DNA from: Thermoactinomyces sp.
GTDB taxonomy: Bacteria > Bacillota > Bacilli > Thermoactinomycetales > Thermoactinomycetaceae
Assembly: GCA_049587175.1 (NCBI GenBank)
Contig: JBAVDL010000074.1
Coordinates: 34,118 to 98,117, forward strand
Length of the DNA: 64,000 nt
Reading direction: 5' to 3'
The position numbers and the translations under genes were made by a program. The notes beneath the pieces were generated by a model, which had not been told where the DNA came from, did no database searches, and saw only the letters and a program-made list of their open reading frames with translations. Positions 13,223-54,440 of the stretch are shown in pieces (position 1 is the stretch's first letter; every line of letters starts with the position of its first letter).

Positions 13223-13274
13223 GGGCAAAACATGCCAAAGAGAACACCATATGCTATAATAAAATATATTTTAC

Positions 13275-13895
13275 AAGAGTGGTGCAGTATTCTAGTCAGT
13301 CGGTCATTTCTGAAGGCGGGGCTAAAAATCCGCTAAAGGGCACATCGATGAAGTTTCTGGTGTTGGCTTGCGGCGCCCAGCTGCGGGCTGATGCTGGGAG
13401 TTAAGGATTAAGGGCGATCCGCAAGGGCATGCGGGCGTAGACCCTTTTTCCGTGGAGGCCCAAGTACGTTGCGGCAAGGACAGCCTTGAAGTGACGGCTT
13501 GGGGGATGAACCTGCATTCCGGGAGTCTCTGGGTGTAGCGTAGCCTGCCTTGAGTGATGGTGCGGGGATGCTTTTCCAAAGCTGAAAGCACTGTTGCAAA
13601 AGAGGCTAGGAAATGAACTTAGACTGTTGAGGAAATCTCCTAGACTGTTTGCAAGGGCAAAGCTGTCCAGGGATTAAAGTGCGGACTAAGTGGCAATCCA
13701 GTCCGGCGGATGGCGACACCGCCGGGAAAGGTTATAAAAGGAAACTGCCTGATTGGCAACGATCAGGATACCTTTCCGGGAAATCCTACTGGACCTTAAG
13801 CCGCAGAGTTTACCTGGACAGTTTCCACTCTTTCCTATGTGTTTTTTGGATGGTTTTACCGGAAAAATACATATAAGTCGTTATAAGAAACGATG
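13275..13895 (+). ncRNA. ole: OLE (ornate, large, extremophilic) RNA candidate; boundaries approximate
   Basis: About 620 nt of ORF-poor, visibly GC-richer sequence between ispA and a membrane-protein gene. Perfect nested helices: 13703-09/13719-25; 13725-32/13770-77 enclosing 13748-53/13762-67; 13376-81/13393-98. The context ispA-[RNA]-membrane protein-dxs-tlyA-nadK-argR-recN is the published OLE context. Confidence 0.7.
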
Positions 13896-13949: not shown

Positions 13950-14588
13950 ATGGATGAATGTATGTTTTCGTTACTCCGAAAATCATTGCGCTGGTCTGTT
14001 GGTATCGGGTTGATCACAGCCCTGATTGCCATGGTACTATCATTATCGTCAACAACCTTGATGAAAGATTTCTCCTGGCAGGGTGGAATGATTGTACTTT
14101 TTATCATTATTGGAATCGGGATCTTTTTTGATATGCTGGGGATTGCGGCGGCTGCAGCCAAAGAGCAGCCTTTTCATGCCATGGCCGCCAAAAAAATTCC
14201 CGGTTCGAAAGAGGCAATCGGGATTGTACGCCGGGCAGACCAGTTTTCCAACTTTTGTAATGATGTAGTAGGGGATATAAGCGGCGTAATAAGCGGAGCA
14301 GCTGCCCTGGTGGTGATTGCTTCCATTATGCGTTCTGCTCCTTCATGGCAGGAGATTGCATGGCTGGAGGATGGTTTGAATGTACTCCTGGTTTCTGTAA
14401 TTTCTGCCATAACCGTAGGAGGAAAAGCATTGGGAAAAAGTTTGTCCATTCATTTTGCTAATCAGATTGTTTTTCAGGTTGGTAGAATATTTTTCTTTAT
14501 TAATAAGAAATTTCATTTATCCATATTTCATGTAAATAAGAAAAGAAAGCGAAAGCGGGGCGGTTTTCGTGGACCTCGAGCAAATTAA
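13950..14588 (+). CDS. oapA: OLE-associated membrane protein A candidate
   Basis: 212 aa with about 4 TM helices and a basic tail (KKRKRKRGG). Lies immediately downstream of the RNA and overlaps the dxs GTG start by 20 nt. The position matches oapA. Start could also be 13962. Confidence 0.7.
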
Positions 14589-21205: not shown

Positions 21206-22693
21206 GTGGTAAGATTGCAAAGACAAGGGAAGCAAAAATGGTTTGGTTTTCTCCTGGTGCTTCTCCTCATAATGGGAAGTACTACCAATGCTTTTCAACA
21301 GTTTACCCAGTTTCCACAGGAAATCCGGCTTTTTCAGGGTGAGTGGAAACAATTGCATTTGTCAATACCGGCTACTGCGGATGTGTCGGATCCCGGCATC
21401 CTGCACATAGACGGATCGGATCAGACGCAAAACCTGAAAAATCTTCGCCATTCCTTCACTTTATTTACCAAAACTGCAGGCAAGACCTGGCTTACAGTAA
21501 AATTGTTCGGTACCCTCCCGATTAAAAAAGTACAAATTCAGGTCTATCCCCGGTTAAAGGTTATTCCCGGCGGCCAATCCATAGGTGTCAAGCTGCACTC
21601 AAAAGGAGTGATTGTTGTCGGGCATCACCGTGTGCAAACGGGTGGTTACAAAGTAAAATCACCCGCCGAAACCGCAGATATACGTGTAGGGGATTACCTG
21701 ATTGAACTGAATGGCCAAGCGGTACGCCGGGTCCAGGATGTTTCCAATATTGTGGAAAAATCAGGAACGAAACCGATCCGTGTAACACTGCTGCGCGACG
21801 GGAAAAGGAAAATAACCACAATTCAGGCTGTGCGGGATGTAAAAGATCATTGTTACCGTCTGGGGTTGTACATTCGTGATTCAGCAGCCGGTGTGGGAAC
21901 TCTTACTTTTTTTGATCCAAAACAGCATGTTTATGGGGCATTGGGACATGTCGTTACCGATCTGGATACAGGTCACCCCATTTTGGTTGGAGATGGGAAA
22001 ATTGTCAAATCCAATGTGACATCGATCCAAAAAGGGGAATCGGGAGAACCGGGTGAAAAAAGAGCGATTTTCTTCCAGGAAAATCAGGTGTTAGGGAATA
22101 TCAAGCAGAATACCCCATTCGGGATTTTTGGCCAAATGGAAAAAGCACCGGATAACGGCAAATTTGACAAGCCTATCCCGATTGCTCTGGCGGAGCAGGT
22201 AAAAGAAGGGCCGGCCAAAATCCTGACAGTGGTTGAGGGACAGAAAGTGGAGGAATACGATATTGAAATTGTGCACGTCATCAAGCAAAAGTATCCGGCA
22301 ACCAAAGGCTTGATCATCCGAGTGACCGATCCGCGTTTATTAAAGAAAACAGGTGGTATTGTACAAGGAATGAGTGGAAGTCCGATTATCCAGGATGGCA
22401 AACTGATTGGCGCCGTTACCCATGTTTTTGTTAATGATCCAACTTCGGGATATGGAACATTTATTGAATGGATGTTGCAAGACGCAGGGGTTATTCAATC
22501 CACAGCGGCTACGAATGATCGTAGCCGCTTTTTTTACAGCCCGATTTTAGGAACTTGCCTTTTTAAGCGAACAACTGCTTTGCTCTTTCCAGTCGTTGTA
22601 AAAGGAAGCATTGATAAAAGCAAACAATGGGACAAACAACATATTGACAAACATTACTACCAGGGCGATCACGAGATAGCGGTCGGTGATTAA
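21206..22693 (+). CDS. spoIVB: SpoIVB peptidase (S55); the annotated 3' end is suspect
   Basis: Signal/TM segment, PDZ region, catalytic-serine motif GMSGSPII...THVFVNDP. Start is GTG 21206 or TTG 21215. The frame stays open through its own terminator hairpin to 22693 (see findings). Confidence 0.85.
   Translation: MVRLQRQGKQKWFGFLLVLLLIMGSTTNAFQQFTQFPQEIRLFQGEWKQLHLSIPATADVSDPGILHIDGSDQTQNLKNLRHSFTLFTKTAGKTWLTVKLFGTLPIKKVQIQVYPRLKVIPGGQSIGVKLHSKGVIVVGHHRVQTGGYKVKSPAETADIRVGDYLIELNGQAVRRVQDVSNIVEKSGTKPIRVTLLRDGKRKITTIQAVRDVKDHCYRLGLYIRDSAAGVGTLTFFDPKQHVYGALGHVVTDLDTGHPILVGDGKIVKSNVTSIQKGESGEPGEKRAIFFQENQVLGNIKQNTPFGIFGQMEKAPDNGKFDKPIPIALAEQVKEGPAKILTVVEGQKVEEYDIEIVHVIKQKYPATKGLIIRVTDPRLLKKTGGIVQGMSGSPIIQDGKLIGAVTHVFVNDPTSGYGTFIEWMLQDAGVIQSTAATNDRSRFFYSPILGTCLFKRTTALLFPVVVKGSIDKSKQWDKQHIDKHYYQGDHEIAVGD
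22504..22536 (+). terminator. Canonical intrinsic terminator lying inside the open spoIVB frame
   Basis: Perfect 10-bp stem AGCGGCTACG 22504-13 / CGTAGCCGCT 22520-29, 6-nt loop, then T7 (22530-36). Confidence 0.8.
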
Positions 22694-23242
22694 AAAGGCA
22701 AGCATTTGGGCAACCCATTCGATCGCCCACTCAACCACTGCAAAACCGAAAATAATCGCGAACAGTTTCCAAAAATTTTTCTTGCCAAACTGAAACGCCA
22801 ATTTGAAGGCTTGCCACCATTTTTTCTTTTCCAAAATGACGACATACGGGAAAGTATAGAACAGAACCATGAATATCAACCCCGGGATGATAAAAAGAAA
22901 TGTCCCGGTCGTGACCCCAAGGGTGTAGATCACTCCCATTACAAACACCATAAATCCGTATTCCCAGAAGCTTCCATAAACTGTGGCAAAGTCAATGTAT
23001 TCCCTTTTTTTGTAACACTCCAGCATTTTAATAAATGGAATTTGCACCACTGAGGTAGCCAGCAGTATATTGATTCCATAAAACATTTCAGCCACATAGA
23101 TTTGCGTTGAACCATAGTATGTATAAAAATAGTTGTTGATCATCAGACAAAGGAATTGCACCGGAAATACCACGAGCAGGCCAAGCAACAGAATCTTGCC
23201 AAACTCTTCCCGATACAATTGCAGCGAATCACGGATCAGCAT
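22547..23242 (-). CDS. Polytopic membrane protein, unknown function (third gene of the cassette)
   Basis: 231 aa, about 6 TM helices rich in aromatic residues. SD aaaggagagg precedes the ATG, 20 nt after the upstream stop. Confidence 0.6.
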   Translation of the reverse strand: MLIRDSLQLYREEFGKILLLGLLVVFPVQFLCLMINNYFYTYYGSTQIYVAEMFYGINILLATSVVQIPFIKMLECYKKREYIDFATVYGSFWEYGFMVFVMGVIYTLGVTTGTFLFIIPGLIFMVLFYTFPYVVILEKKKWWQAFKLAFQFGKKNFWKLFAIIFGFAVVEWAIEWVAQMLAFLITDRYLVIALVVMFVNMLFVPLFAFINASFYNDWKEQSSCSLKKASS

Positions 23243-23262
23243 AAAGTCCTCTCCTTTTAAAC

Positions 23263-24090
23263 TTAACCTCTGGGGTTGCGGATTTTTTCGATCAATTTTT
23301 TTCGTGTTTGTTCTGTTGCTTTTTCTCTGGAAACATCAGCTTTAAATTTTTTATATTCAGCCAAGGTTGCCGAATCGGCGTTTAACCAACGATGAAATTT
23401 ATAAAGCCGCAAGTACAGAAACCATTTTTGCAAATCCGACAAAGGAATTGCTTTTCTTAATTTTTTTAGAAATTGTTTTCGTTCTTTTTTCGTTTCGATC
23501 TGTACTTCAAATTGTTTTTTCATAGTTTCCATCATTTGCAAGTGATTTTTGTCTACTTTTTTGAAATAATCTTTGGTCATAAGATAGTCGGTGGTTAATT
23601 CTCGATAAAGATCTTTTGCCTTTTCTACGATTTCTTTTAACTGATCTTGTGTTTCAAATATGACTTGTGGTATGGAACAAAATAACTCATATCCTTTTTT
23701 CAAATCTTTATCATCCGAAGCATGGACAAGTTCAGCAAATGACTCCAGAAGAGATTGTCCTTTCTTCCATATTTCCATTGGTCTTTGTGACCACTCTAAA
23801 CCATAAATAAATATATTTTCTAATTCTGCGTCTACAGTAGCGACGTAGTCTAGAATCTCAATAACGTTTTTGTGAATGGGGATATTTCCATTCTCATGGA
23901 TGATTAATATGCCGGTTAAATGATCTTCTCTGGGATAAAAACTGACATAATAGTATTTTTCATTATTGCATATGATTTTATGTGGAAATACATTATAGGT
24001 TTCTCCCTTTTTTACGTAAGAACGTGCTACCTTTTTGATCAATTCCGGCGGTTCAGGATTGGGATTAACTCTTAATTCTTCCAGGTTCAT
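23263..24090 (-). CDS. Hypothetical cytosolic protein, Lys/Glu-rich helical C-terminal half (second gene of the cassette)
   Basis: 275 aa with no TM segment. SD taggggg precedes the ATG, 17 nt after the upstream stop. Looks AT-rich by eye. I recognise no motif. Confidence 0.6.
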   Translation of the reverse strand: MNLEELRVNPNPEPPELIKKVARSYVKKGETYNVFPHKIICNNEKYYYVSFYPREDHLTGILIIHENGNIPIHKNVIEILDYVATVDAELENIFIYGLEWSQRPMEIWKKGQSLLESFAELVHASDDKDLKKGYELFCSIPQVIFETQDQLKEIVEKAKDLYRELTTDYLMTKDYFKKVDKNHLQMMETMKKQFEVQIETKKERKQFLKKLRKAIPLSDLQKWFLYLRLYKFHRWLNADSATLAEYKKFKADVSREKATEQTRKKLIEKIRNPRG

Positions 24091-24107
24091 CGATCTAACC
24101 CCCTATA

Positions 24108-25079
24108 TTAACCAAAAATTTTGTTCCAAGCTGATTTTACACCATTTATTGCTTTTTTAACTCCTTTTTTAATCCCCTCCCGATGGGTGTACAAAGCGCT
24201 TCCTGCCCACAATACCGTTCCTGCACCCATTAAAAAGACTCCCGGACCTGTGGGGCCCAATATTTGCCCTCCGGCAATCAGCATTTCGCCTACACTTCCA
24301 ACACCCTTGGCAATCGACTTATAGGCTTCATCAGAGTTATCAGCTTTAAAGGCATCCACAAAATTTTTGCCGGCATCAATGGCCGAGATCCCCAAACTGG
24401 CAAATCCCACTCCTTTGGCGAATTTGGTGACTGTTTTCAGGCTGCCAATCTTTTTCTGGATTTCGGCTTTCTGAAAGATTGATATTGTAGTCGATTCATT
24501 CATCCGTTGCAGCGTATTAATTTCTCTCAAAGTTTTATATTTGTTCCAGGCATCCAATGTTTTTTCTGCTCCGTCCCATGTATCGATTGCGATTTTTCCA
24601 ATGGAACCGTCCTGGAAATACAAGTTTCCCAACAGGGAGCGCGGCACTTTGACAAGAGAGGTATAAAGAATACCATTAGCATTGGGATTTTCCCATTGGC
24701 CGGTAATTATATCATAACGTGCTTCATTGTAGATATTGGGTTCAATGGCAGCGGCGGTGTCTGTTACAACATCCTTGGACATGAATTTCAATACATCCCA
24801 AATGCCCGGCCCGTCATCTTCCTTTGTCTCCTGTTTTGCGGGCTGTTTTTGATCTTTTGCTTGTATCTGTGTATTTGTACCATTTATTGGTTGATGCGGT
24901 TTTGGTTTCTCTCCTTCCTTTGGCTGATAGAAATCCTCGTTAATGGGAGGAGCATTGAAACTTCCTTCTCCTTCTGCAAAAACAACAAAGCCGGGTCCAA
25001 AGGAAATGCTTATGCTGACCAAAGCGATCAGAAAACCCATCATCCAGCGATAAATCGATTTTCTATTCATGCGCGTCAT
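24108..25079 (-). CDS. Secreted or anchored protein with Pro/Lys/Gln linker and C-terminal glycine-zipper-like hydrophobic region (first gene of the cassette)
   Basis: 323 aa. N-terminus MNRKSIYRWMMGFLIALVSISISFGPGFVVFAEG looks like a signal peptide. C-terminus GVGFASLGISAIDAG...GVGSVGEMLIAGGQILGPTGPGVFLMGAGTVLWAGSALY. No clear SD at either candidate start. Confidence 0.55.
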   Translation of the reverse strand: MTRMNRKSIYRWMMGFLIALVSISISFGPGFVVFAEGEGSFNAPPINEDFYQPKEGEKPKPHQPINGTNTQIQAKDQKQPAKQETKEDDGPGIWDVLKFMSKDVVTDTAAAIEPNIYNEARYDIITGQWENPNANGILYTSLVKVPRSLLGNLYFQDGSIGKIAIDTWDGAEKTLDAWNKYKTLREINTLQRMNESTTISIFQKAEIQKKIGSLKTVTKFAKGVGFASLGISAIDAGKNFVDAFKADNSDEAYKSIAKGVGSVGEMLIAGGQILGPTGPGVFLMGAGTVLWAGSALYTHREGIKKGVKKAINGVKSAWNKIFG

Positions 25080-25899
25080 GTCATATTTTTACGGAAAACC
25101 GGAAATTATCAATAAGTTTTGCCTGGGGTTCCCCTATGTATAAAATTGTTTTCCGTACCCTGTTCACCTTCCTTTTTGTCTGTTTGTTCATCAAAACGAC
25201 AATCCAAAGAGACAGACTGAACCATTGGTTCACCCTGTTAAATAAGTAAGTTCAATTTGTTTTTGCACTGCTGTGTTCCCGGTCATGGGTAACGTTGGAA
25301 AAATAAAGATAAAGGAATTATACCTGTATTTCAAATATTTTAACGCAAATATATTTGTACAAATTGTTAAAATTTTTATCCGTATTTAGCCAGATTTGTT
25401 TTCAAGCGGGGAATTATCTGATAAATAGAATAAATTTCATGGTCATCTTTGGTCATTTAGCAAATCAAACATGGGATTTATCCGCAATGAGAGAGAGAAA
25501 ACTTTTGAAAGAGAAGGCGGCAAAGAGATCGTTGCGATCCGGTACTAACAGAGTAGTAGCAGAAGGGGGAAATCAGGAAACAACGGGTATGGTGTTTTTT
25601 GGTATCCAATAAAGAAAACTTTTGCATAGAGTGCTGCTTCTATAAACAGAATTGATGCAATTATAATTTACAAAATGGAATTTATTATTTATCAAATTAA
25701 GTAAATGTAAACTGAAACAAAAATGTATTATGTTAAAAATGAATAGAAGAACGACTATTTTGGATAGATTTGAAGGAAAACCAATGATTTAACCCATAGA
25801 TGTTCCTTAATGGGTTTAAGCCGGTTTCACCGGGGAACATCCGGAGGAATACGGATTGCAAAGACCGGGGAAAGATGTTATTTTATGATCTGTTGTTCC

Positions 25900-25931
25900 G
25901 AAAAAAAACTGCTGTATAAAGTACAGCAGTT
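25900..25931 (-). terminator. Intrinsic terminator of the transporter gene
   Basis: ACTGCTGTA 25908-16 pairs with TACAGCAGT 25922-30. The plus-strand A-run 25901-07 gives a U-tract on the minus strand. It directly abuts the stop codon. Confidence 0.7.
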
Positions 25932-27205
25932 TAAGCGGCTTTACGGAGTTCCTCAATATATATTTGCGCTTTGTTTTCATTAAATTGTTTTTCCCATTTG
26001 GACATGACAACAGAAGCCAGTGAATTTCCCATTACGTTTACAACAGTACGCATCATGTCCATAATGCGGTCTACCCCGGCGATAAAGGCCAGTCCTTCTG
26101 GCGGAATGCCGACAACGTGCAAAGTCGCCATCAAGACAACGAAAGAAACACCTGGCACACCGGCAATTCCTTTTGAAGTAACCATTAAGGTAAGAAGCAA
26201 GGTGATTTGTTGGCTGATCGTCAAATCAATCCCGTACATTTGAGCGATAAAGATTGCAGCAATTGCCTGATACAGGGTGGAACCATCCAGATTAAACGAA
26301 TAGCCGGTCGGAATGACGAATGAAGTGATTGCTTTCGGGCATCCGTATCGTTCCATTTTCTCCATTAATTTCGGTAATACTGTCTCCGAGCTGGAAGTGG
26401 AATAAGCCAGAATCAATTCATCTTTTAAAATCCTCATTAAATGGAAAATATTGACACCAACTATTTTTGCAGTCAAGCCAAATATGACCACGACGAAAAA
26501 GATCATGGTTAAGTATACAAGAATAACCAGTTTACTGAGCGGAATCAACGATTCAATCCCAAATTTGGATACCGTTACACCGATTAGGGCAAATACGCCA
26601 AAAGGTGCAAATTTCATGATCAGATTGGTCATGTAAAACATGGCATCAGCTGTTGCCTGAAAAAAATTTAATACGGGTTTCCCTTTTTCACCAATTGCGG
26701 CAATGCTCAAACCGAACATGACAGAGAAAAAGATAATTGCCAGCATATCTCCATCAGTCATTGAACTGAATAAATTATCAGGAACAATATGAACAAAGGT
26801 ATCAACTATACTGTGACTTTCCACTTCTTTGGTAGTTTGTGAATATTGACTGATATCCGTTTGCTGGATAGCGTTCATGTCGATCCCGTTGCCAGGTTGA
26901 AATATGTTTGCTGCAAGCAATCCGACCAAAAGTGCTACCGTTGTAATGATTTCAAAATATAAAATTGTTTTTCCGCCAAGTTTGCCAAGCTTTTTAATAT
27001 CGCCTACTCCGGCAACACCGACAATAATACTGGAGACGACGATCGGAATAACGATCATTTTAATAAGACGTAGAAAAATATCGCCAATTGGCTGTAAAAT
27101 TCTTTCAACAGAGGGATTTCCAAAAAAAATAGCACCTACTGCAATCCCAAATATCAAACCGATAAAAATTTGCCATGCAAGGCTGATTTTCAGCTTTTTC
27201 ATCAA
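25931..27205 (-). CDS. Dicarboxylate/amino acid:cation symporter (DAACS, GltP/GltT-like)
   Basis: 424 aa. N-terminus MKKLKISLAWQIFIGLIFGIAVG and conserved core ...PTGYSFNLDGSTLYQ...AGVPG... are typical of the family. Substrate not assignable. Confidence 0.9.
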   Translation of the reverse strand: MMKKLKISLAWQIFIGLIFGIAVGAIFFGNPSVERILQPIGDIFLRLIKMIVIPIVVSSIIVGVAGVGDIKKLGKLGGKTILYFEIITTVALLVGLLAANIFQPGNGIDMNAIQQTDISQYSQTTKEVESHSIVDTFVHIVPDNLFSSMTDGDMLAIIFFSVMFGLSIAAIGEKGKPVLNFFQATADAMFYMTNLIMKFAPFGVFALIGVTVSKFGIESLIPLSKLVILVYLTMIFFVVVIFGLTAKIVGVNIFHLMRILKDELILAYSTSSSETVLPKLMEKMERYGCPKAITSFVIPTGYSFNLDGSTLYQAIAAIFIAQMYGIDLTISQQITLLLTLMVTSKGIAGVPGVSFVVLMATLHVVGIPPEGLAFIAGVDRIMDMMRTVVNVMGNSLASVVMSKWEKQFNENKAQIYIEELRKAA

Positions 27206-27399
27206 ATCACCTCACTATATAAATATACATAGCTTAGAATAATTATAGATGCTTTTGACATTTTTTTAATTAACAAAGTAAACAAGTGACAACTAACATC
27301 TTAAAATAATTTAAAATATAAATCAACCTTTATAATAATAATTTTATAACTTAGAATTTGATTTTTTTTCTAAATAGAATTTATATAAAGGTTTTGAAC

Positions 27400-27434
27400 T
27401 ATAAAAGGCACCGGGACAGTTTTTGCCCGGTGCC
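27400..27434 (-). terminator. Intrinsic terminator of the small SspM-like gene
   Basis: GGCACCGGG 27407-15 pairs with CCCGGTGCC 27426-34. A T-rich tract follows on the minus strand. Confidence 0.6.
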
Positions 27435-27442
27435 TATGCAGG

Positions 27443-27580
27443 TCAGGTAGATGGCCGGTCAGGCCCTTCCAGTTTTTTATCTCCGAAACCAGTTGCCGTT
27501 TCATTTTCAATTTTGTTTTGCGGAACAGGTTTATTTAATTTTTTCTTTTGGTTTAAGCTGGATGATGATTTTTTGTCCAT
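27443..27580 (-). CDS. Small hydrophilic protein, minor SASP SspM-like (45 aa; below the ORF-track cutoff)
   Basis: My translation: MDKKSSSSLNQKKKLNKPVPQNKIENETATGFGDKKLEGPDRPST. SD aaaggagcg lies 9 nt upstream and a terminator lies downstream. The C-terminus resembles B. subtilis SspM (...DKKLGGPNRPST) as I recall it. Confidence 0.5.
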   Translation of the reverse strand: MDKKSSSSLNQKKKLNKPVPQNKIENETATGFGDKKLEGPDRPST

Positions 27581-27704
27581 TCTTTACTTCGCTCCTTTCT
27601 ATTGATAATATGCTTCAAATTATATATTTATAAACGATTTTTCTTTTACTTTGTAAAGTGTTTTCCATATTATTGAAAAATATGAATTGGACGGAAAGCG
27701 GCAT

Positions 27705-27731
27705 GCAGGAAGTTTTAATTGTTTGTCGAAT
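27705..27731 (+). promoter_or_regulatory. Candidate sigma-H type spo0A promoter overlapping a 0A box
   Basis: GCAGGAAGT (27705-13) and CGAAT (27727-31) have AGGA-to-GAAT spacing of 21 nt, which fits the sigma-H consensus. TGTCGAA (27724-30) equals the Spo0A-box consensus. Located about 45 nt upstream of spo0A. Confidence 0.45.
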
Positions 27732-27774
27732 GGAAAATGTAAACTGTTTTTTGGACGATTAGGAGGTTCTTTCA

Positions 27775-28569
27775 TTGAACAAGATTCGTGTCATATTGGC
27801 TGATGATAATCGGGAATTTGCCGATTTGTTAAAAGAACATTTGACAAATCAGGGCGATATTGAAGTGATTGGTGTGGCCCACCACGGGGGTGAAGTGATC
27901 GACCTGTTAAAGAAAGAAATTCCGGATGTTCTTGTACTTGATATCATTATGCCTCATCTGGACGGACTTGGCGTATTGGAACAAATTCATCAAATGGATC
28001 TGGAAGTTTTGCCAAAAGTAATCATGCTGACAGCCTTTGGACAGGAAAATATTACCCATCGGGCGGTAGAACTGGGAGCGTCATATTATATATTGAAGCC
28101 TTTTGATTTGGATGTGCTTACACATCGAATCCGGCAGATGAAGGGAATTTCCTCGAAGCCCGCGTTTATAAAAACGGGTGCTTCCACAGCTGTTTCCTCA
28201 GCCGGACAGAAAACAAACAATCTGGATGCCAATATTACCAATGTGATCCATGAAATTGGAGTTCCCGCCCATATCAAAGGCTATCTGTACCTGCGTGAAG
28301 CAATATCCATGGTTTATAACGAAGTGGATTTGCTGGGTGCGATCACCAAATCGTTGTATCCCCGGATTGCGGCCAAGTATAACACAACTCCCAGCCGGGT
28401 TGAACGGGCCATCCGTCATGCGATTGAGGTAGCATGGAACCGCGGGAACATGGATTCCATCCGTAATCTGTTTGGTTACACAATCAACGTGACAAAAGCA
28501 AAACCGACAAACAGCGAATTTATTGCCATGGTTGCGGACAAATTGCGAATTGAACATAAAGTCGTATAA
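27775..28569 (+). CDS. spo0A: Sporulation master regulator Spo0A
   Basis: Receiver domain (ILADDN...[10 protein letters not shown]) and the hallmark effector helix [19 protein letters not shown] start sits 8 nt after AGGAGG. Confidence 0.95.
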
Positions 28570-47249: not shown

Positions 47250-48098
47250 TCAGGTAAAAAAATCTTTACTGTAACCAGGGGCAATGATTTTTAATTTTTC
47301 CATAATCCTCCGTTTCCGGTACAGCATCATTCCTGCTTCTGCCACTTCCTCAATGGTAAACCGATTGATGATTGCCCCGAAAACAATGCCGATGACAGGA
47401 ACAAGCTGAAAAAGCTTTTTCCAACCGTAATTGTCACCATAGTTAATTATTACTTCCCTCCAGCCCTGAAACTCGGAAATGGCTTCCCGCTGAACTTTGC
47501 CTGAATCGGTCTCTGCCAGTTGCTCCAGAATGGTTTTTTTCCCGACGAAATCAGAAGATGCAAATTGCAGGCATTTGACAATAAAGATACGTTCTTTTTT
47601 TTCACGGGGCTGGTAACCATAGATCAATGCCATTTCCTGAAGTACCCGCAGGGATATTCCAACCAAGGCCGGAATATCAATGGCAAGTGTAAATATGCCT
47701 CCAAAACCGGTGGTTGCTCCTTGCATGGTTGCAATCTGTTTGTGATGTTCCTTGGTCTCTTCGGCAACCTTGTTTAACACGGACAGGGGAACGTGGGCAA
47801 CCTCTTCAAGAGAGAGAGAGCCGTTTTTGATTCCCGCCGCTTTGGAAACACGATTTAACGTTTCTTGATCGTTGATCAGATACTGTCCGCCAGTTTGAAT
47901 GTAGCTTCCCAATTCATCCAGGAGTTTTCCGAGCATTTCCTGTACTTTTTTGGGGATCAATTTATCCAGGAGCACAAAGGGGAGACGCCCGATTTTTTCC
48001 CAGAACCATAAATCTTTTTGATCTTTTTCCCAACGACGGATCGCTTCCAGTTCTTGCAATAAGACCTCTTTGCTTTCAAGCGGAAATAAATAGTTCAT
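47250..48098 (-). CDS. EcsC-family protein
   Basis: 282 aa. Overall pattern (RWEKD...WFWEKIGRLPF...LIYGY...RRI) resembles the EcsC family. Assigned by recollection only. Confidence 0.55.
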   Translation of the reverse strand: MNYLFPLESKEVLLQELEAIRRWEKDQKDLWFWEKIGRLPFVLLDKLIPKKVQEMLGKLLDELGSYIQTGGQYLINDQETLNRVSKAAGIKNGSLSLEEVAHVPLSVLNKVAEETKEHHKQIATMQGATTGFGGIFTLAIDIPALVGISLRVLQEMALIYGYQPREKKERIFIVKCLQFASSDFVGKKTILEQLAETDSGKVQREAISEFQGWREVIINYGDNYGWKKLFQLVPVIGIVFGAIINRFTIEEVAEAGMMLYRKRRIMEKLKIIAPGYSKDFFT

Positions 48099-48119: not shown

Positions 48120-48884
48120 TCAGGATATTAACAAATTTTTGCAAGCTTTGAGCAGTTTTTCCCCGTAAGCTTGACGCAACGGCTTATGTTCATTTTTGTC
48201 GAGGCTTTTATCAATCGTGCTGATGATCGCCAATACAGCGCGTACTTTCAGATCAATGCCAGATACGGTTTCCTGGTCTCCCTGGATCAGCAATCGGCAA
48301 TTTTGATTTTCATCTTCAATAAAGGTGCCTTTTTTGACGGAAAGATACTGATCTTTGGCTGCCATGGTTTCTTCGGCGATCCGGTAAGCTTCTTCCATGA
48401 GATCAAACAGGAACAAATCGGAGGGGGAACTGTCAGTCTCCAGCTCTTTCCGAAGTCTTTGCAATTCTTTCATGCGATGCTGCAAATACCGGTTTTCCAG
48501 ATTGTATATTGCCTCGACCGGAGTGGTTGTGTGACTTTTTTTTGCGGGAAATGGTTGTGTTGCTTCAATGGCTTTGATCTTGTACATCGTGTGAAACTGA
48601 AGATTTTTCCCTGTATTAGTTGAGCCAATACTGGACAATTCAATCAAATCCTTTTCCACAAGACGTGTCAAGGCTCGCCGGATGGTGGAACGGGTCAAAT
48701 CCAGATATTTTTCCAGCTTTTTGTAGGAAATAATCGCAGATCCCCTGGGAAGCGGGATACCGGTATTTTCATCAATCGTATCTTCATTGGATGCCAGACG
48801 AACCAGTTCAAAATAGGTTTGCCGTTCCCGTGGAGTCAGGCTGTTTAATTTGGCTTGATAGAGAAGATGTTCGCTTTGTTTCAT
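48120..48884 (-). CDS. Winged-HTH-like N-terminal domain protein with coiled-coil C-terminus, unknown function
   Basis: ATG at 48884 follows aaaggag. ISYKKLEKYLDLTRSTIRRALTRLVEKDLIEL is wHTH-like. Lies 21 nt upstream of the EcsC-like gene. Confidence 0.5.
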   Translation of the reverse strand: MKQSEHLLYQAKLNSLTPRERQTYFELVRLASNEDTIDENTGIPLPRGSAIISYKKLEKYLDLTRSTIRRALTRLVEKDLIELSSIGSTNTGKNLQFHTMYKIKAIEATQPFPAKKSHTTTPVEAIYNLENRYLQHRMKELQRLRKELETDSSPSDLFLFDLMEEAYRIAEETMAAKDQYLSVKKGTFIEDENQNCRLLIQGDQETVSGIDLKVRAVLAIISTIDKSLDKNEHKPLRQAYGEKLLKACKNLLIS

Positions 48885-49622
48885 AAACGTGCTCCTTTCT
48901 GCAAACAACTTCTAAGGCAGCATTCTTATTTTATAATAAAATTTATAACATGTATTAAGTATAGATTGAATTCTAACGAATTTTCTATTATAAATGCCGG
49001 CTAAACTTCTTTGCTGAAAGTATTATCAGGGAAAACTTGTTTGCATACTCCATATTGAAAAAGCTTGATATCATCCTCACGCTGCTCCAAACATGTTTCA
49101 GGGTGTTTCCTCCCCGTTTTGTTCCCGTTTCATTAATAGAAAGTTTCACCCGCAACCGTTAACGCCCGCCCCGAATAAAATCCTCACATCCAATTTTCCA
49201 CTGGTCAGGCTGCCCCTGACAGGGCCGGTTTCATTTGTTTCGGTCATCACTGTCGGAAGCCGCTCCGCTTCTTGAAATCGTCTTTATTTATATGTTTTCT
49301 CCAGTCTCAAGCCGGGTTGCCCCGACTCTGTTTTTAGAGGAAGAAGCCTGATCATTTTCAAATGGCGGAGGGTTTCCTTCCAAAAAGGTGCAGGAAGGGG
49401 CAGGACTTGAAATGACTCGATCGGAAGTATTTGGATTTTAAAATTTATAAAATTAATATATGCTTTTATTTATAAATATAGTTGTACAATCCAGTCGACC
49501 CAATAGATTAAATCGTATATCGAAAATATCTGTACAACAATCAAATATCAGTAGTTATTTTCAGATTATAAAAATTGTAATAAGTCATTTATTTTTTTCA
49601 TAACGTTCAACGGGCTTCCATA

Positions 49623-49648
49623 ACTTTTGTGATAAAAGTCACAAAAGT
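49623..49648. promoter_or_regulatory. Perfect inverted repeat with TGTGA-N6-TCACA core (Rex or Crp/Fnr-type operator candidate)
   Basis: ACTTTTGTGA 49623-32, taaaag, TCACAAAAGT 49639-48. Located about 200 nt upstream of the 49847 ORF. Confidence 0.5.
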
Positions 49649-49846
49649 AATCGCTTTTTCGAAATAAGCTACAATTGTAAACGTTGTCCAGTCAATGAAG
49701 AGCAATTTGTGTAGTTTTGTCGGAGAGTCTGGGAGAGAAAAAGCATTTGATTGGAGGGGATCTGTTCAGACAACCTTGGGTTTTGATGTCAGGCCATGTA
49801 GACTTGCAGCCAAAAATGATGAACCAAAAAGGAGGGAATCTGAATC

Positions 49847-50482
49847 ATGACTCTGTTTGACCGGTTGATACTTCTTGTTACAGGTCTTGTCGCTATTTAC
49901 CTGATTGTTCATTTTTATCGGAAATATCGGCAAGCCGATGGCAAAGCCAAATATAACCTTTATTATCTTGTTGCTTTTGCTGTCCTTCTGGTCGCGGGCC
50001 TGCTTCTTATTGCCCTGGGTTATGATATTCTGGCCAATCCCCTTGTAGTCATTGTATCGTCTTTCATTCCGGCATTGCTGGCTACAGGATTGGTTGCCCA
50101 GTTTTATCCCAGGAGTGAACGGGCCTTTCTTATTTTTGCCATTCTTGGTGTTCTGGGAATAGCGCTTACTCGCCTGGGAGGTGAACCGGGAGGTCTGGCG
50201 ACAGTGATCCTGGCAACTGTTCACAGTATTTTTGGGTTAACTATCTTCTTCCTCCCCATTATCGCTACCCGTAAAGGGGAAGTTACATCTTTCTTCCCAT
50301 GGGTGACAGTAGGCGGGACGCTGATCAGCATTGGCGGAATTGCTCTGGCTTTTCTGAAAGCCGGCATGCCGATTCTTTCGCAGGAAATGATTCTCACGAT
50401 TCTTGCGCCGTTGCTTCTGTTGATGGCGATCAGTTATGCCCTGGGTTTTGTAAAGGGAAATGCATCCCCCAAAAAAACCTGA
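49847..50482 (+). CDS. Hypothetical 6-TM membrane protein
   Basis: 211 aa. Strong SD aaaaggaggg. Six hydrophobic helices. No motif recognised. Confidence 0.6.
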   Translation: MTLFDRLILLVTGLVAIYLIVHFYRKYRQADGKAKYNLYYLVAFAVLLVAGLLLIALGYDILANPLVVIVSSFIPALLATGLVAQFYPRSERAFLIFAILGVLGIALTRLGGEPGGLATVILATVHSIFGLTIFFLPIIATRKGEVTSFFPWVTVGGTLISIGGIALAFLKAGMPILSQEMILTILAPLLLLMAISYALGFVKGNASPKKT

Positions 50483-50718: not shown

Positions 50719-52281
50719 ATGACTGGATTGGGCCAACGCTTAAAATATCTGTTTACTTCAACAAAAGGACTGGTTCTTACTGCCGTCGCTCTTGTCGGTC
50801 TGGTGGCAGCCGTGATGAGCACACTCTCCGGACCGATGGTGGAGTGGGGTGTCAAGGATATTACTGTAAACCTGTTGGGCATGGATCTGGTAGAATCCGA
50901 GCGCGAGGGCCGGATCGTCATGTTGTATCATTGCTTCGCCATGCCGGTTATTGCCGTTCTTGTCTATTTCATTACGGCCAACGTGCGCCTCAAGGAACAT
51001 TGGCCCCCTATCATCAACGGAACGATAACGGTTGGATATATAACAGCCATGTTTTCCGGTTTGGGATATGCCTATTTCGGCCATGATCAAACATTGCACG
51101 GGCTCTATCTGGTTGGTTTATCCCTGATCTTCTTTGCAGGTGTCATGCTTGCCGTTGCTCTGTGGCCCTGGAATAAAGAATATTATTTGCCGAAAGATTC
51201 GCCGTATTCCCGCACCCGGAAAGGTCTTGATCTGGAGCGGCTCTCTTTTTGGCTTGTAACGGTCGCAACGCTGGGCTCTGCCGTGTTAGGCGCCTGGGCA
51301 GGCTCCCATTATGGCAGCGGTTTTGAAACGTTTCTGGCAGAGGACGTGGTTCGGATTCCTCACAAGACAGCCCATGAACTGGCGGTGATCGGACACCTGC
51401 ATATCATGCTGGCTTTAATGGGGGTTGCCATTACCCTTGTGATGGGACGCTGGTTTAATTTCAGAGGTTTTTGGCATGCACTGGCCATGCCCTCAATGGT
51501 TATCGGTACGTTAACCCTCACCCTGGGTGCCTGGTCAGTTGTGCCCTATGAAAATATTGCTCACACCATTATCTATGTGGGTGCTGTCTTTAGCCTGTTG
51601 GGAGGTCTTTTCCTGGTTATTTTCAGCTTGCCGGCCATTATGAAAGATCGTCTGAAAGAATTGGGAATCAGTAAACCGACAACCGGGCAAAAGATCAGGG
51701 CGCTTTTGCATGACCCTTTGAAATTCGGTGTTCTGTGGCAAATGATTTATATGAATTTTGTCACCAGTTTTGTGGGAATCTTTATGGCCATCAAGCTGGA
51801 TGACATTTTCCGTGTATGGCCGCATCGCGATGAACGTATCGAATTGGTCGGACACTGGCATATTCTCGCAACGATAATTGCGATCATGATTCTGTTCTAT
51901 TTTGCAGATCGGGTCGGGTTAAGAGGCAAACCGCGCCAGATATTTGGCTGGACGATTATCATTGGTTCTGATCTCGCATTCGCTGCTGTAACCGTTTTTG
52001 CCATGAAACGTCTTTTTGTAAGCGAGTATATGCAGCAACCAATTGTAAACACAACGATGATTTTGACAGATATCGGGCTTGCGCTGGTAATGATTTTCCT
52101 CGCTATCTTTTTGTGTTGGCGCTTGATTGATCTTTTCAAAGCCGACGGATTCTGGAAAAGAGAGTTGGAAACGGGCGGTTTTGATCCGACTCCTGCAGGC
52201 CCCGCAGGGCAAGAAACTGTACCGGCACGGGAGAAAACTTCTGTGGACAAGGCCGACAAGCCGGTAGCAGACGGCAAATAA
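50719..52281 (+). CDS. 12-TM membrane protein with duplicated His/Glu motif, unknown family
   Basis: 520 aa. Two similar motifs, RIPHKTAHELAVIGHLHI (aa 212-229) and RVWPHRDERIELVGHWHI (aa 365-382), each at the entry of a TM helix, plus a His in TM2 (LYHCFAMP). SD aagaggtga. Confidence 0.7.
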   Translation: MTGLGQRLKYLFTSTKGLVLTAVALVGLVAAVMSTLSGPMVEWGVKDITVNLLGMDLVESEREGRIVMLYHCFAMPVIAVLVYFITANVRLKEHWPPIINGTITVGYITAMFSGLGYAYFGHDQTLHGLYLVGLSLIFFAGVMLAVALWPWNKEYYLPKDSPYSRTRKGLDLERLSFWLVTVATLGSAVLGAWAGSHYGSGFETFLAEDVVRIPHKTAHELAVIGHLHIMLALMGVAITLVMGRWFNFRGFWHALAMPSMVIGTLTLTLGAWSVVPYENIAHTIIYVGAVFSLLGGLFLVIFSLPAIMKDRLKELGISKPTTGQKIRALLHDPLKFGVLWQMIYMNFVTSFVGIFMAIKLDDIFRVWPHRDERIELVGHWHILATIIAIMILFYFADRVGLRGKPRQIFGWTIIIGSDLAFAAVTVFAMKRLFVSEYMQQPIVNTTMILTDIGLALVMIFLAIFLCWRLIDLFKADGFWKRELETGGFDPTPAGPAGQETVPAREKTSVDKADKPVADGK

Positions 52282-52368
52282 CCAATAACAGTACGCAAGT
52301 ACGATGGATTATAACCGATTGGAATCAACAATTTCAGACAATTGGGCGTAGGGAGGTGTCCATTGCAA

Positions 52369-53289
52369 ATGAAAAAGTTTACCCTATTCGCTTCATTGCT
52401 GCTGTTTGTTCTTCTGTTGTCCGGCTGCGGTGAGATTCCGGAAAAAACGGATGCTGTAACGCAAATTACGGATTCCGGTGTGAATCCGGATTCCTGGGCA
52501 AAGGTTCCGGCTGGTGCCTTTTTAAAGGGGCAATTTAACAAGCCGGCCAAGATCGATTATGACTATGAAATAATGGTAACGGAAGTTACCAATTCCCAAT
52601 ATGCAACTTATCTCGGTGAGGCGCTGGCAAAGGGAAAAATCAAAATGCATGATGGAAAAATCATGGGCTATTATCCCGGGGATAAATTTAATGGCGGGAA
52701 GCACGAAAAGAAGATAGAGGCCAAGGACTATCTGCATATTGATCTCAACGATCCGGCAAGCCGGATTACTTACGACGGAAAGAGGTTCAGCGTAAAACCG
52801 GGCTATGAAAATCATCCTGTCACCATGGTTACCTGGTTTGGCGCGAAAGCCTATTGTGATTTTTATGGTTATCGGCTGCCTACAGACGATGAATGGGAAA
52901 AAGCAGCCCGCGGTACGGATGGTCGTCCTTTCCCGTGGGGAGAAGAAGTTTCCCATGCCAATCTGAATTATTACCACAGCAAAGATCCGTTTGAGACAGA
53001 CGGAGGTTACAGTGACACGACTCCGGTAGGTTTTTATAACGGTAAAAGATATGGGGATTTCCAGACAGTTGATTCTGCAAGTCCTTACGGCTTGTATGAC
53101 ATGGCAGGAAATGTCGGCGAATGGACAGGCAATCTGCATTATCAGGTCCACTACCGCAATATCCGCGGCGGAAGCAAAGCTACATATGCAATTGATGCAA
53201 GAGTTTGGAAAACTAACAGTTCCCAGCCGGATTATGCTGGCCCCAGTACCGGATTTCGCTGTGTACGGGATCCCATTGTGACCAAATAG
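52369..53289 (+). CDS. Lipoprotein with FGE-sulfatase (SUMF1/formylglycine-generating-enzyme-like) domain
   Basis: Lipobox LLLSGC after MKKFTLFASLLLFV. Also ...HPVTMVTWFGAKAYC...RLPTDDEWEKAARG...YGLYDMAGNVGEW...IRGGS...GFRCVRD. The track start is 52342. Confidence 0.8.
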   Translation: MKKFTLFASLLLFVLLLSGCGEIPEKTDAVTQITDSGVNPDSWAKVPAGAFLKGQFNKPAKIDYDYEIMVTEVTNSQYATYLGEALAKGKIKMHDGKIMGYYPGDKFNGGKHEKKIEAKDYLHIDLNDPASRITYDGKRFSVKPGYENHPVTMVTWFGAKAYCDFYGYRLPTDDEWEKAARGTDGRPFPWGEEVSHANLNYYHSKDPFETDGGYSDTTPVGFYNGKRYGDFQTVDSASPYGLYDMAGNVGEWTGNLHYQVHYRNIRGGSKATYAIDARVWKTNSSQPDYAGPSTGFRCVRDPIVTK

Positions 53290-53314
53290 TCATCAAGCCT
53301 GAAGGAGGAAGCAG

Positions 53315-54205
53315 ATGAGCGTTTATCAGCAAATTTTCTCGAAAGGTCGCCTGATGCTTGCCAAAATGCGCGCCTATTGGGTATTAACCAAGTTCAGACA
53401 GAGCATGCTCCTGCTGATAACGGGTTTGGCAGGATATAACAGTGCGACCGGTCATCTGGCAGGCAATGGAGAGCTGTATCCCATGCTGGGAAGCCTGTAC
53501 CTGGCAATTTGCGGCAGTACAGTACTTAATATGGTGATTGACCGCGATATTGACAGGAAGATGAACCGGACTGCCAAACGTCCTTTGGCCACCGGGGTTT
53601 TGAGTGTAAAAGAAGCGCTTGCATTTGGTCTTGTTCTCTCCGTCGCAGGGATCGGATGGGCCTTTGCCTTAAGTGCGCTGTACGGCTGGATCGTCGCCAT
53701 CGGTTTGTTTATTGACGTGGTAGTCTACTCCGTCTGGTTGAAAAGGCGAACCCCCTTCTCGATTGTCCTGGGAGGTATATCCGGCGGGATGCCGATTCTG
53801 GCAGGACGGGCCCTGGGTTTGGGCAGTGTCGACCTGATTGGTGTTCTTCTGGTTCTGGCGATCCTGTTGTGGATTCCAACCCATATCCTGACGTTCAGTA
53901 TCAAGTATGCTGAAGATTACAAGCGCGCTGGTATCCCTACCTTTTTCTCCGAATATGGAGAAAAAATAACGCGGCTCATTATTGTATGGTCTACCGCGCT
54001 GGCAAGTATTGATATGATTGTAGCCGTTCATTTGATTGGCATGAAAAGCTATTACTTTGCTGCATTATTTTTATCTGTGCTAACCTTGATCGGATTTGCC
54101 GTCATTTGCTTTTTTCATCCCTCTCCAAAACGGAACTTCGGGTTGTTTAAAGCTGCCTCTACGTACATGTTAATCTCGATGTTGCTTATCAGCATGACGA
54201 TGTAG
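53315..54205 (+). CDS. UbiA-family prenyltransferase, protoheme IX farnesyltransferase (heme O synthase)-like
   Basis: NMVIDRDIDRKMNRTAKRPLATG matches the CtaB/CyoE signature (N..DRDID..M.RT..RP). Second motif YAEDYKRAGIP. About 8-9 TM helices. Confidence 0.8.
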   Translation: MSVYQQIFSKGRLMLAKMRAYWVLTKFRQSMLLLITGLAGYNSATGHLAGNGELYPMLGSLYLAICGSTVLNMVIDRDIDRKMNRTAKRPLATGVLSVKEALAFGLVLSVAGIGWAFALSALYGWIVAIGLFIDVVVYSVWLKRRTPFSIVLGGISGGMPILAGRALGLGSVDLIGVLLVLAILLWIPTHILTFSIKYAEDYKRAGIPTFFSEYGEKITRLIIVWSTALASIDMIVAVHLIGMKSYYFAALFLSVLTLIGFAVICFFHPSPKRNFGLFKAASTYMLISMLLISMTM

Positions 54206-54357
54206 AGAGCTGATTTGGACAAGGATGGCAGTACTGCAATTTTCAGTGCCAACCTGTTTGGTATGCACAGATTGAATATGACTGTTCAAGTTCAAACCAA
54301 AACCCGTCCTGTGTTCAGACTGCACACAAACACAGCAAGGCGGAAATCAATTCAAGT

Positions 54358-54382
54358 GGGTTCCAGGGAACCCGCTTTTTTA
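54358..54382 (+). terminator. Intrinsic terminator ending the three-gene operon
   Basis: GGGTTC 54358-63 pairs with GAACCC 54368-73, then GCTTTTTT. Confidence 0.6.
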
Positions 54383-54440
54383 ATATGGCATGATCCCGTT
54401 TAACTGTCGATGGTGCCTGTGTTTTCAGGGCTTCATATGA

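Follow-up and report, generated by a model that had tools for sequence, protein, structure and literature searches.

The window analysed here, a 64,000-nt stretch of contig JBAVDL010000074.1 from Thermoactinomyces sp., contains four consecutive genes, designated g0, g1, g2 and g3 (Table 1), which encode a 7-helix membrane protein, a protein with 12 transmembrane (TM) helices, a lipoprotein with the fold of formylglycine-generating enzymes (FGE) and a divergent prenyltransferase of the heme O synthase type. As judged from their conserved gene order, the four genes form one module, and the operon ends at the terminator hairpin downstream of g3. The module as a whole may tentatively be considered a new and very divergent, heme-O-dependent oxidoreductase resembling the heme-copper oxidases (HCO), probably scavenging O2 or nitric oxide (NO).

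Table 1. Features of the g0-g3 module, with positions counted from the first nucleotide of the window
Feature	Position	Strand	Description
Crp/Fnr-type palindrome TGTGATAAAAGTCACA	49628-49643		Candidate operator, ~205 nt upstream of g0
g0	49847-50482	+	211-aa, 7-helix membrane protein, family unassigned
g1	50719-52281	+	520-aa, 12-TM protein; putative catalytic heme-binding subunit
g2	52369-53289	+	FGE-sulfatase-fold lipoprotein, 306 aa from ATG 52369; putative extracytoplasmic subunit of g1
g3	53315-54205	+	296-aa CtaB/CyoE-type UbiA prenyltransferase; predicted divergent heme O synthase dedicated to the module
Intrinsic terminator	54354-54387	+	Hairpin 54354-54377: 10-bp stem, 5 GC pairs, 4-nt loop, then TTTTTTAATAT

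The initial annotation of this locus had described an operon of three plus-strand open reading frames (ORFs) at 50719-54205, and all three were recovered (50719-52281, 52342-53289 and 53315-54205); it had missed, however, the fourth gene, g0, and the palindrome at 49628-49643. The intergenic distances it gave, 60 and 25 nt, are right for these ORF coordinates, in which g2 starts with TTG 52342 and would comprise 315 aa. Since a ribosome-binding site (AGGGAGGTG) occupies 52350-52358 and a protein of 306 aa was predicted by an independent gene call, the true start of g2 is most likely ATG 52369, and the gap between g1 and g2 becomes 87 nt. The 25-nt gap between g2 and g3 carries a good ribosome-binding site for g3. 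No convincing terminator was found on the plus strand within g1-g3, as had already been noted; g3 contains the sole candidate, a weak hairpin of 6 bp. Behind g3, a hairpin resembling a terminator and followed by a T-run is indeed present, although at 54354-54377 instead of 54358-82. Upstream of g0 lies a non-coding leader of 939 nt (window 48909-49846), in which a TACAAT hexamer is found 26 nt downstream of the inverted repeat bearing the palindrome. Searching the leader and the intergenic gaps against Rfam gave no riboswitch or other RNA at E≤1.

Fold, conserved residues and internal repeats of g1

Both the structural model of g1 and an alignment of 261 sequences agree with the earlier description of a 520-aa protein with 12 TM helices and conserved His and Glu residues. 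No family match was obtained in Pfam, NCBIfam or the sequences of the PDB, either with the single sequence (phmmer included) or with a profile, and the Pfam families COX1, COX15-CtaA and NnrS gave no match at E≤10 among 38 members of the g1 family and none, with thresholds likewise permissive, among 10 divergent relatives; by sequence, g1 thus falls into no characterised family, including the NnrS, COX15/CtaA and HCO subunit I families proposed for comparison in the initial annotation. A HMMER search of 1.84 billion representatives with the g1 profile returned 354 clusters, none of which forms a bridge from the g1 family to the canonical oxidases.

An AlphaFold2 model of g1, built with 38 homologues, consists of 12 long helices (pLDDT 82, pTM 0.85). 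When this model was compared with the PDB by Foldseek, 16 of the 20 best matches were to subunit I of cbb3, aa3 or ba3 oxidases or of the NO reductases (NORs) qNOR and cNOR, with TM-scores of 0.43-0.58, probabilities of 0.87-1.0 and a sequence identity of ~12%; these were followed by unrelated membrane proteins at TM-scores of 0.1-0.2. As modelled, g1 has the 12-TM fold of HCO subunit I.

Profile-profile alignment (hhalign) of the g1 family with six canonical oxidases gave a weak signal (E 0.006), which places GH379WH381 of g1 on AH419FH421 of E. coli CyoB, i.e. on the residues that bind heme o3 and heme b, and M-K430-R431 of g1 on the propionate-binding R481-R482 of CyoB. Furthermore, the UniRef name of one member of the g1 family cites the PROSITE profile of cytochrome oxidase subunit I. 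The oxidase register of g1 is supported by this label together with the alignment of the GHWH motif with CyoB. A global hhalign alignment of the g1 family with seven canonical oxidases was discarded because it was out of register, the HxH motif of helix 6 being placed on that of helix 10, and this slippage led to the test for internal repeats given below.

The alignment of 261 sequences comprises 200 core-family and 61 divergent members, down to 24% identity. Seven histidines of g1 (H71, H127, H226, H228, H282, H379 and H381) are essentially invariant throughout, as are Y70, Y119, R65, R365, E372, E208 and W380; H71, H379 and H381 are kept in 258-259 of the 261 sequences. From a positive-inside count of Lys and Arg residues and from the loops of the model, the N-terminus is placed in the cytoplasm and all seven histidines in the outer half of the membrane. 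In the HCOs the heme ligands are a helix-2 His and a helix-10 HxH motif, and g1 has this pattern as H71 and as H379 and H381, respectively. Helix 6 carries H226-x-H228, helix 8 starts with the single invariant H282, and the extra invariant H127 is found at the start of helix 4. The histidine positions 71, 226/228, 282 and 379/381 of g1 nearly coincide with those of the ba3 oxidase from Thermus thermophilus, which we take to be 72, 233, 282/283, 384 and 386.

A tyrosine accompanies these histidines. Y286, in the arrangement H282-x3-Y286, is present in 196 of the 200 core sequences and is replaced by Asn or Trp in several divergent subfamilies. Position 427, in the outer third of helix 11, is the sole column of the alignment that compensates for this loss, since it is occupied by Tyr in 92% of the sequences without Y286 versus 13% elsewhere. 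Taking the two positions together, a Tyr is found in 256 of 259 informative sequences, a count which cannot be read as a probability because the sequences are interrelated. The active-site tyrosine is known to relocate between HCO families, and the 286/427 pattern of g1 recalls this.

For the repeat test, the g1 alignment was cut into three 4-helix units (residues 1-152, 160-320 and 322-485), which were compared with each other by hhalign. Units 2 and 3 matched with a probability of 95.7% (E 1e-8), while unit 1 matched unit 2 at 40% and unit 3 at 48%. The alignments of the units equate H71 with H228 and H381, H226 with H379, and H127 with H282, the segment GH226LH228IML of helix 6 being matched to GH379WH381ILA of helix 10. 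Internal repeats are not a unique feature of g1; that view was rejected because canonical oxidases, taken as a control, gave 70% for units 1 and 3 (other pairs <8%). Judging from this control, the threefold repeat is common to the oxidases and the peculiarity of g1 lies in the strong likeness of its units 2 and 3. Both of these units also match unit 3 of the HCOs, at E 3e-4 and 7e-4, respectively.

Partner proteins and conserved gene order

The synteny of the module was evaluated by tblastn and ORF clustering in the 80 best loci, 55-75% identical to g1. The order g1-g2-g3 is seen in essentially every locus of sufficient length, with g3 present in 70 of the 80. The arrangement of the trio, whose co-occurrence in other genomes the initial annotation had left as a point to be checked, is far from chance, given that many phyla share it and that about 70 of the 80 loci show it.

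The product of g2 matches the Pfam family FGE-sulfatase (PF03781) at 6e-37 over residues 71-309, and its N-terminus, MKKFTLFASLLLFVLLLSGC, is a signal peptide with the lipobox LLSGC, in line with the exported FGE-fold lipoprotein described previously. The lipobox is present in 44 of 59 g2 orthologues, and the Cys of the lipid anchor is at least 90% conserved. The catalytic copper-binding Cys pair, presumably Cys336/Cys341 in human FGE, is absent: after the GGS motif g2 reads RGGSKATYAIDARVW, and none of the 59 aligned orthologues has a conserved Cys there. The residues invariant among the orthologues are generic motifs of the fold and the pair H121-E122. Since the Cys pair is missing, g2 is not a formylglycine-generating enzyme; its candidacy as a true FGE or copper enzyme was rejected, and the chemistry of the FGE type, dependent on copper and O2, that the initial annotation had suggested is left unsupported. 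In the core family, g2 directly follows g1 at practically every locus. In several lineages the two are naturally fused, and because these fusions keep a hydrophobic 13th TM segment between both parts, the FGE domain would sit outside the cell.

The g3 protein passes the curated cutoff of the NCBIfam heme O synthase family TIGR01473 marginally (213.7 versus 210.3 bits), the next-best NCBIfam family scoring ~66 bits, and matches UbiA at 1e-46. Its motif NxxxDRDIDRKMNRT, recognised as a CtaB/CyoE signature already in the initial annotation, aligns with NxxxDRDIDRKMxRT of E. coli CyoE, to which g3 is 33% identical. The score of E. coli CyoE on TIGR01473 is 305 bits, and those of the orthologues linked to g1 are 191-216 bits, straddling the cutoff. 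It is predicted that g3 is a heme O synthase-type enzyme dedicated to the module and farnesylates heme B to heme O. Neither a canonical oxidase gene nor a second ctaB, the latter a possibility raised earlier, is found within the 64-kb window, and a COX1 gene is nearby in only one of the 80 loci; g3 therefore appears to be coupled to g1 and not to standard oxidase genes.

In 58 of the 80 loci, homologues of g0 immediately precede g1 and/or immediately follow g3, often as two paralogues. They belong to no Pfam or NCBIfam family. The AlphaFold2 model of g0 (pLDDT 93.6) is a 7-helix bundle, in which H126, K171 and T108 are invariant within the family. The fold search yielded only generic 7-TM matches (GPCR, rhodopsin), and for this reason g0 was rejected as an oxidase subunit III; it is a putative accessory subunit or assembly factor.

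Distribution, distant subfamilies and regulation

Close homologues of g1 form >3,250 clusters at 90% identity, almost all of them labelled 'hypothetical', and relatives are encoded in at least 505 GTDB species genomes. When clustered at 50% identity, the full-length core family collapses to ~2 representatives. The hosts of the 80 loci are mostly anaerobes and belong to Chloroflexota (mainly Anaerolineae), Bacillota, Ignavibacteria, Melioribacteraceae, Calditrichota, Geobacteraceae and Desulfuromonadaceae, and furthermore to Aminicenantes, Marinimicrobia, KSB1, Spirochaetales and Dehalococcoidales. Among the close homologues no cultured bacterial host was found, all being from metagenome-assembled genomes (MAGs), and a plasmid collection contained no g1 homologue.

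Apart from the module genes and regulators, recurrent neighbours are four families of uncharacterised membrane proteins, TetR regulators, DUF423 proteins and, in 11 loci, genes for NapH/MauN-like Fe-S membrane proteins. In Desulfitibacter sp. BRH_c19 (L001 13407-16891) the module is directly followed by genes of alternative heme biosynthesis (AhbA/AhbB and a NirJ1/AhbC-like radical SAM protein) and by the gene of a NapH-like Fe-S membrane protein. Two further arrangements were observed among the loci. In a Chloroflexota locus (L041 312-8831), the sole one of the 80 with the module and a canonical oxidase gene side by side, genes for two Crp-family regulators, a 169-aa uncharacterised protein and COX1 (208 bits) are located directly upstream of g1-g2-g3, and two complete tandem copies of g1-g2-g3 stand side by side in a Bacillota MAG (L006 1165-8774) and in a Caldithrix MAG (L007 3-8222).

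Distant relatives of g1 were collected by the profile search and by a metagenome scan with the alignment; a metagenome scan with the single protein P0264 returned none. They are 22-48% identical to g1 and, one outlier excepted, keep all seven histidines. In at least 20 of their loci the g1-like gene is directly followed by a UbiA gene of the heme O synthase type (191-205 bits on TIGR01473), and an FGE gene was never present at the distant-subfamily loci. As these loci keep UbiA without FGE, the pairing of a g1-like protein with a heme O synthase appears to be ancient and universal, g2 and g0 being additions of the core family. In one such subfamily (L130 5911-9263; also L129, L133, L135, L140, L164 and L168), which has no FGE gene, proteins with DUF438-hemerythrin-PAS_10 and DUF166 follow with a 4-nt overlap.

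Another distant subfamily is found in Asgard archaea, namely in Loki/Promethearchaeota and in Thor-, Heimdall- and Hodarchaeota (L170-L174 and L118). One of its members, DSAG12_01126 (L170 8001-9485), is encoded by the cultured Ca. Prometheoarchaeum syntrophicum MK-D1. The Asgard operon consists of genes for a small exported protein, the g1-like protein, a membrane protein, an FAD_binding_4 protein and an Fe-S/CCG protein. A UbiA gene resembling that of heme O synthase lies inside this operon or ends it in four MAG loci, and no UbiA gene is present within 8 kb of the MK-D1 operon. The latter adjoins genes for a flavodiiron protein and for an oxidoreductase with Pyr_redox_2 and Rubredoxin_C, and the operon of a Loki MAG adjoins catalase and Fur genes.

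With regard to regulation, the palindrome TGTGA-N6-TCACA has a single exact match in the window, at 49628-49643 (0.06 expected), which sits inside a 26-nt inverted repeat (49623-49648), a hairpin considered at one stage a terminator-like element and then reinterpreted as a Crp/Fnr palindrome. Within 400 nt upstream of the module, the box was found with at most one mismatch in 18 of 72 loci (15 exact matches), while ~1.9 boxes would be expected in the 72 upstream regions from the box density in the same loci. Among the additional neighbours, genes for Crp/Fnr regulators recur most often (32 of 80 loci); the 64-kb window itself contains none. The expression of the module is thus presumably under the control of the Crp/Fnr family, with 49628-49643 as the candidate operator.

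The surroundings of the module in the window contain several other features. Genes for MciZ and SpoIIM are located in its neighbourhood and, together with the OLE RNA described below, mark the host as a Bacillota bacterium that forms endospores. Divergent from the module leader are genes for a 262-aa protein with a weak winged-helix/helix-turn-helix signal (48120-48908, minus strand) and for an EcsC-family protein (47250-48098, minus strand); no conserved link of either protein to the module was seen in other loci. Farther upstream, a full-length OLE (Ornate Large Extremophilic) RNA was found on the plus strand at 13263-13844 (Rfam RF01071, 514 bits), and the 212-aa ORF directly downstream of it (13950-14588) may encode its OapA partner. 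The region 22000-28000 has a GC content of 0.37-0.39 versus ~0.45, a flattened GC skew and several minus-strand ORFs (22547-27205), and it may be a horizontally acquired island.

Proposed function and comparison with known systems

On the basis of the observed fold and conserved residues, synteny, g1-g2 fusions and operator enrichment, g1 is rather likely to be a heme-O-binding, HCO-like redox enzyme, for which heme occupancy, substrate, electron donor and a possible second metal are inferred. In the proposed mechanism, the 12 helices would derive from three 4-helix repeats. A low-spin heme would be bound by H71 of helix 2 and H381 of helix 10. H379 would ligate a second heme, high-spin and farnesylated (heme O), which g3 would supply. 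H226, H228, H282 and H127, together with the Tyr at 286 or 427, would make up a non-canonical active site in the outer third of the membrane. On the outer face, g2 would replace the subunit II of oxidases as a lipid-anchored FGE-fold domain devoid of FGE chemistry, g0 would be a 7-TM accessory or assembly subunit, and a regulator of the Crp/Fnr family would control the expression of the module. Electrons derived from the membrane would reduce a small oxidant, for which O2 is favoured, in scavenging or micro-oxic respiration by mainly anaerobic hosts, NO being the main alternative.

The reduction of O2 or NO is favoured because of the oxidase-like fold, the heme-ligand register, the obligatory tyrosine, the Crp/Fnr control and the hemerythrin and oxidative-stress neighbours, O2 being somewhat more likely of the two. 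O2 as the specific substrate is a tentative assignment. The stronger proposal of a new HCO branch or a sister lineage, in which a terminal reductase depends on heme O, has a non-canonical active site that may be free of copper and carries an FGE-fold protein as its outer subunit, is to be regarded as rather doubtful. The view that the locus is an undescribed, dedicated heme-O membrane redox module unlike the cta and qox sets, put forward in the initial annotation, gains support from these results, from which its function can be predicted.

Several points weigh against an HCO-like oxidoreductase. Homology of g1 to the HCOs is not established at the sequence level: Pfam COX1 (PF00115) was unmatched by all 48 members tested (the above 38 and 10 divergent ones), and a profile search of the PDB sequences with the g1 family returned nothing. 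The Foldseek E-values of the matches to the g1 model are modest (3e-3 to 0.3), and the hhalign probabilities versus HCOs are low (6-40%). g1 lacks the canonical CuB/FeB set, which comprises a single His of helix 6 and an HH pair of helix 7, and a three-His metal site is not assured since H226 and H228, two residues apart, should face different sides. Among the conserved neighbours in the loci there is no copper chaperone and no CuA or cytochrome c subunit. Finally, Crp/Fnr regulators answer many signals, the ones examined have no Cys clusters, and the oxidative-stress neighbours of the Asgard operon come from two loci only.

An NO reductase or NO-detoxifying enzyme of the same architecture, without a redox-active second subunit and fed by quinol like qNOR, is an unlikely alternative to O2 reduction, to which several observations nevertheless point. 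NOR subunit I chains (3ayf, 6qq6, 3o0r and 6l3h) are among the fold matches of g1, the hosts are mostly anaerobic, and YgbA_NO genes are located 6-8 kb away in two Asgard loci. The Crp/Fnr regulators near the module are without Cys clusters, a type that includes NO sensors such as Dnr/NnrR. However, cNOR and qNOR use heme b, whereas the partner of the g1 family is a heme O synthase, and the Glu after the helix-6 His, a motif of the FeB site of cNOR, is missing in g1. New HCO families without the helix-6 Tyr have been proposed to be NORs (Murali et al. 2024, PMC11214002), which has been counted in favour of NO as well; against this, the Tyr is almost always conserved in the g1 family, and nir, nor and nos genes are not conserved neighbours.

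It is likewise improbable that g1 is a multi-heme relay cytochrome fed from the quinone pool and that catalysis takes place on the extracellular g2 of the core family or, in other subfamilies, on partner dehydrogenases. The seven conserved histidines could ligate three bis-His hemes with one His to spare, the HxH motifs in helices 6 and 10 suggest two cofactor sites per helix, and genes for NapH/MauN-like quinol dehydrogenases in 11 loci, as well as the FAD_binding_4 and CCG/Fe-S genes of the Asgard operon, would be consistent with such a chain. The FGE fold is in addition capable of O2-dependent chemistry, as performed by FGE, EgtB and OvoA, but g2 lacks the FGE Cys pair and has no obvious metal site beyond the invariant H121-E122. 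Moreover, the distant subfamilies dispense with g2 but not with the heme O synthase, and the conserved histidines are all in the outer half, so that electrons from the cytoplasm cannot be passed to the outside through g1. Apart from this family, hemes O and A are to our knowledge found only at the catalytic sites of oxidases, which also argues against a relay. eNOR represents a further occurrence of these hemes (PMC11214002).

As a third alternative, g1 could be an enzyme modifying heme O, analogous to CtaA/Cox15 and possibly independent of O2, which would deliver the modified heme to another protein; this is considered quite unlikely. The strict pairing of g1 with g3 does resemble that of ctaA with ctaB, and heme-biosynthesis genes adjoin the module of Desulfitibacter. 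Furthermore, units 1 and 2 of g1 carry histidines in their second and fourth helices (H71/H127 and H226-228/H282) in a CtaA-like manner, the four histidines of CtaA from B. subtilis being presumably at 60/123/216/278. The histidines of helices 4 and 8 are, however, ~5-6 residues shallower than those of helices 2 and 6, which makes the bis-His ligation of one heme awkward. No member tested matched Pfam COX15-CtaA at E≤10, and the top 50 fold matches, which are dominated by 12-TM oxidase subunits, include no CtaA structure. A consumer enzyme of the modified heme is not conserved in the neighbourhood either, and the external lipoprotein and the linked FAD/CCG dehydrogenase genes fit a respiratory complex better.

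Finally, a transporter or permease with an incidental link to the heme O synthase, as could be presumed from the twelve TM helices and from one JGI record that labels a homologue 'MFS family permease', is highly improbable, given that no MFS or other transporter family was matched, that transporter structures reached TM-scores of only 0.1-0.2, that the conserved His, Tyr and Arg residues follow the pattern of a heme protein and that the synteny with the heme O synthase spans bacteria to archaea.

If the reading as a heme-O-dependent oxidoreductase is true, hosts regarded as 'strict' anaerobes (Anaerolineae, Geobacteraceae, Desulfuromonadaceae, Calditrichota, Ignavibacteria and spore-forming Bacillota) would gain an unrecognised O2 or NO sink, and the sister subfamily would extend the consumption of these gases to Asgard archaea of the Loki, Thor and Heimdall types, including Ca. 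Prometheoarchaeum syntrophicum, which is directly relevant to the debated oxygen metabolism of archaea related to the eukaryotes. Aerobic and denitrifying capacities are inferred from oxidase and NOR families recognised by sequence, and the g1 family is invisible to Pfam and NCBIfam; should g1 reduce O2 or NO, oxygen tolerance and the turnover of nitrogen oxides would be under-counted in anoxic sediments, bioreactors and the subsurface. Heme O synthase genes are often annotated in genomes without oxidases, and the g1 family would explain such strays. The visible threefold repeat of g1 could, in that case, preserve an early stage of oxidase evolution, and the likeness of its units together with the symmetric His pairs of helices 6 and 10 may serve as a probe for the origin of the oxidase scaffold.

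Compared with described systems, the partner proteins are the simplest to place. g3 has its best match in CyoE/CtaB (TIGR01473), with which it has the Asp-rich motif in common, but it scores ~90 bits below CyoE and represents a divergent branch whose partner is g1 and not a canonical oxidase. g2 shares the complete domain and the motifs EWEKAARG, HPV and GFRC with the FGE-sulfatase proteins (FGE, NirV, GldK/PorK and the C-domain of EgtB) and, like that of NirV, its gene adjoins the gene of a membrane or periplasmic redox enzyme. In contrast to true FGE, it is without the catalytic Cys pair and copper site, is lipid-anchored and is sometimes fused to g1; its scores on specific NCBIfam FGE subfamilies (14-54 bits) are far under the cutoffs.

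For g1 itself, the 4-helix repeats, the histidines in alternate helices and the gene beside a heme O synthase gene are reminiscent of CtaA/Cox15, but CtaA has 8 TM helices and not 12, and neither the COX15-CtaA family nor the CtaA fold was matched. The closest likeness is to subunit I of the HCOs, i.e. CyoB of the bo3 oxidase, the ba3 oxidase of T. thermophilus, CcoN of the cbb3 oxidases and NorB of qNOR/cNOR, with which g1 shares the 12-TM, pseudo-threefold 4-helix fold, the helix-2 His and helix-10 HxH in the heme-ligand register, the basic pair after helix 11 at the propionate position and a conserved Tyr that shifts its helix between subfamilies; the linkage to a heme O synthase gene is also that of cyoABCDE. 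Unlike the HCOs, g1 gives no Pfam COX1 signal, is only ~12% identical, lacks the HH of helix 7 and occurs without CuA, cytochrome c or a canonical subunit II, III or IV, its partners being an FGE-fold lipoprotein and a 7-TM protein. The sequence likeness of its internal repeats is still visible, and its hosts are mostly anaerobes.

Divergent, oxidase-like families with altered active sites have been proposed recently, mainly from metagenomic data, namely eNOR, sNOR, gNOR, nNOR, NOD and a putative N2O reductase, with nitrogen oxides as their proposed substrates (PMC11214002). In that work they are treated as branches of either the B-type or the C-type oxidases, CuA-type second subunits being present in four families (PMC11214002), whereas g1 is below detection by Pfam COX1 and has other partners. 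The g1 family is not mentioned there, and no description of it was found in the literature searched, the coverage of which was incomplete, so that an earlier mention is possible. In summary, g1 resembles HCO subunit I by its fold and its ligand register, and stands outside the described families by sequence criteria and by its CuB pattern.

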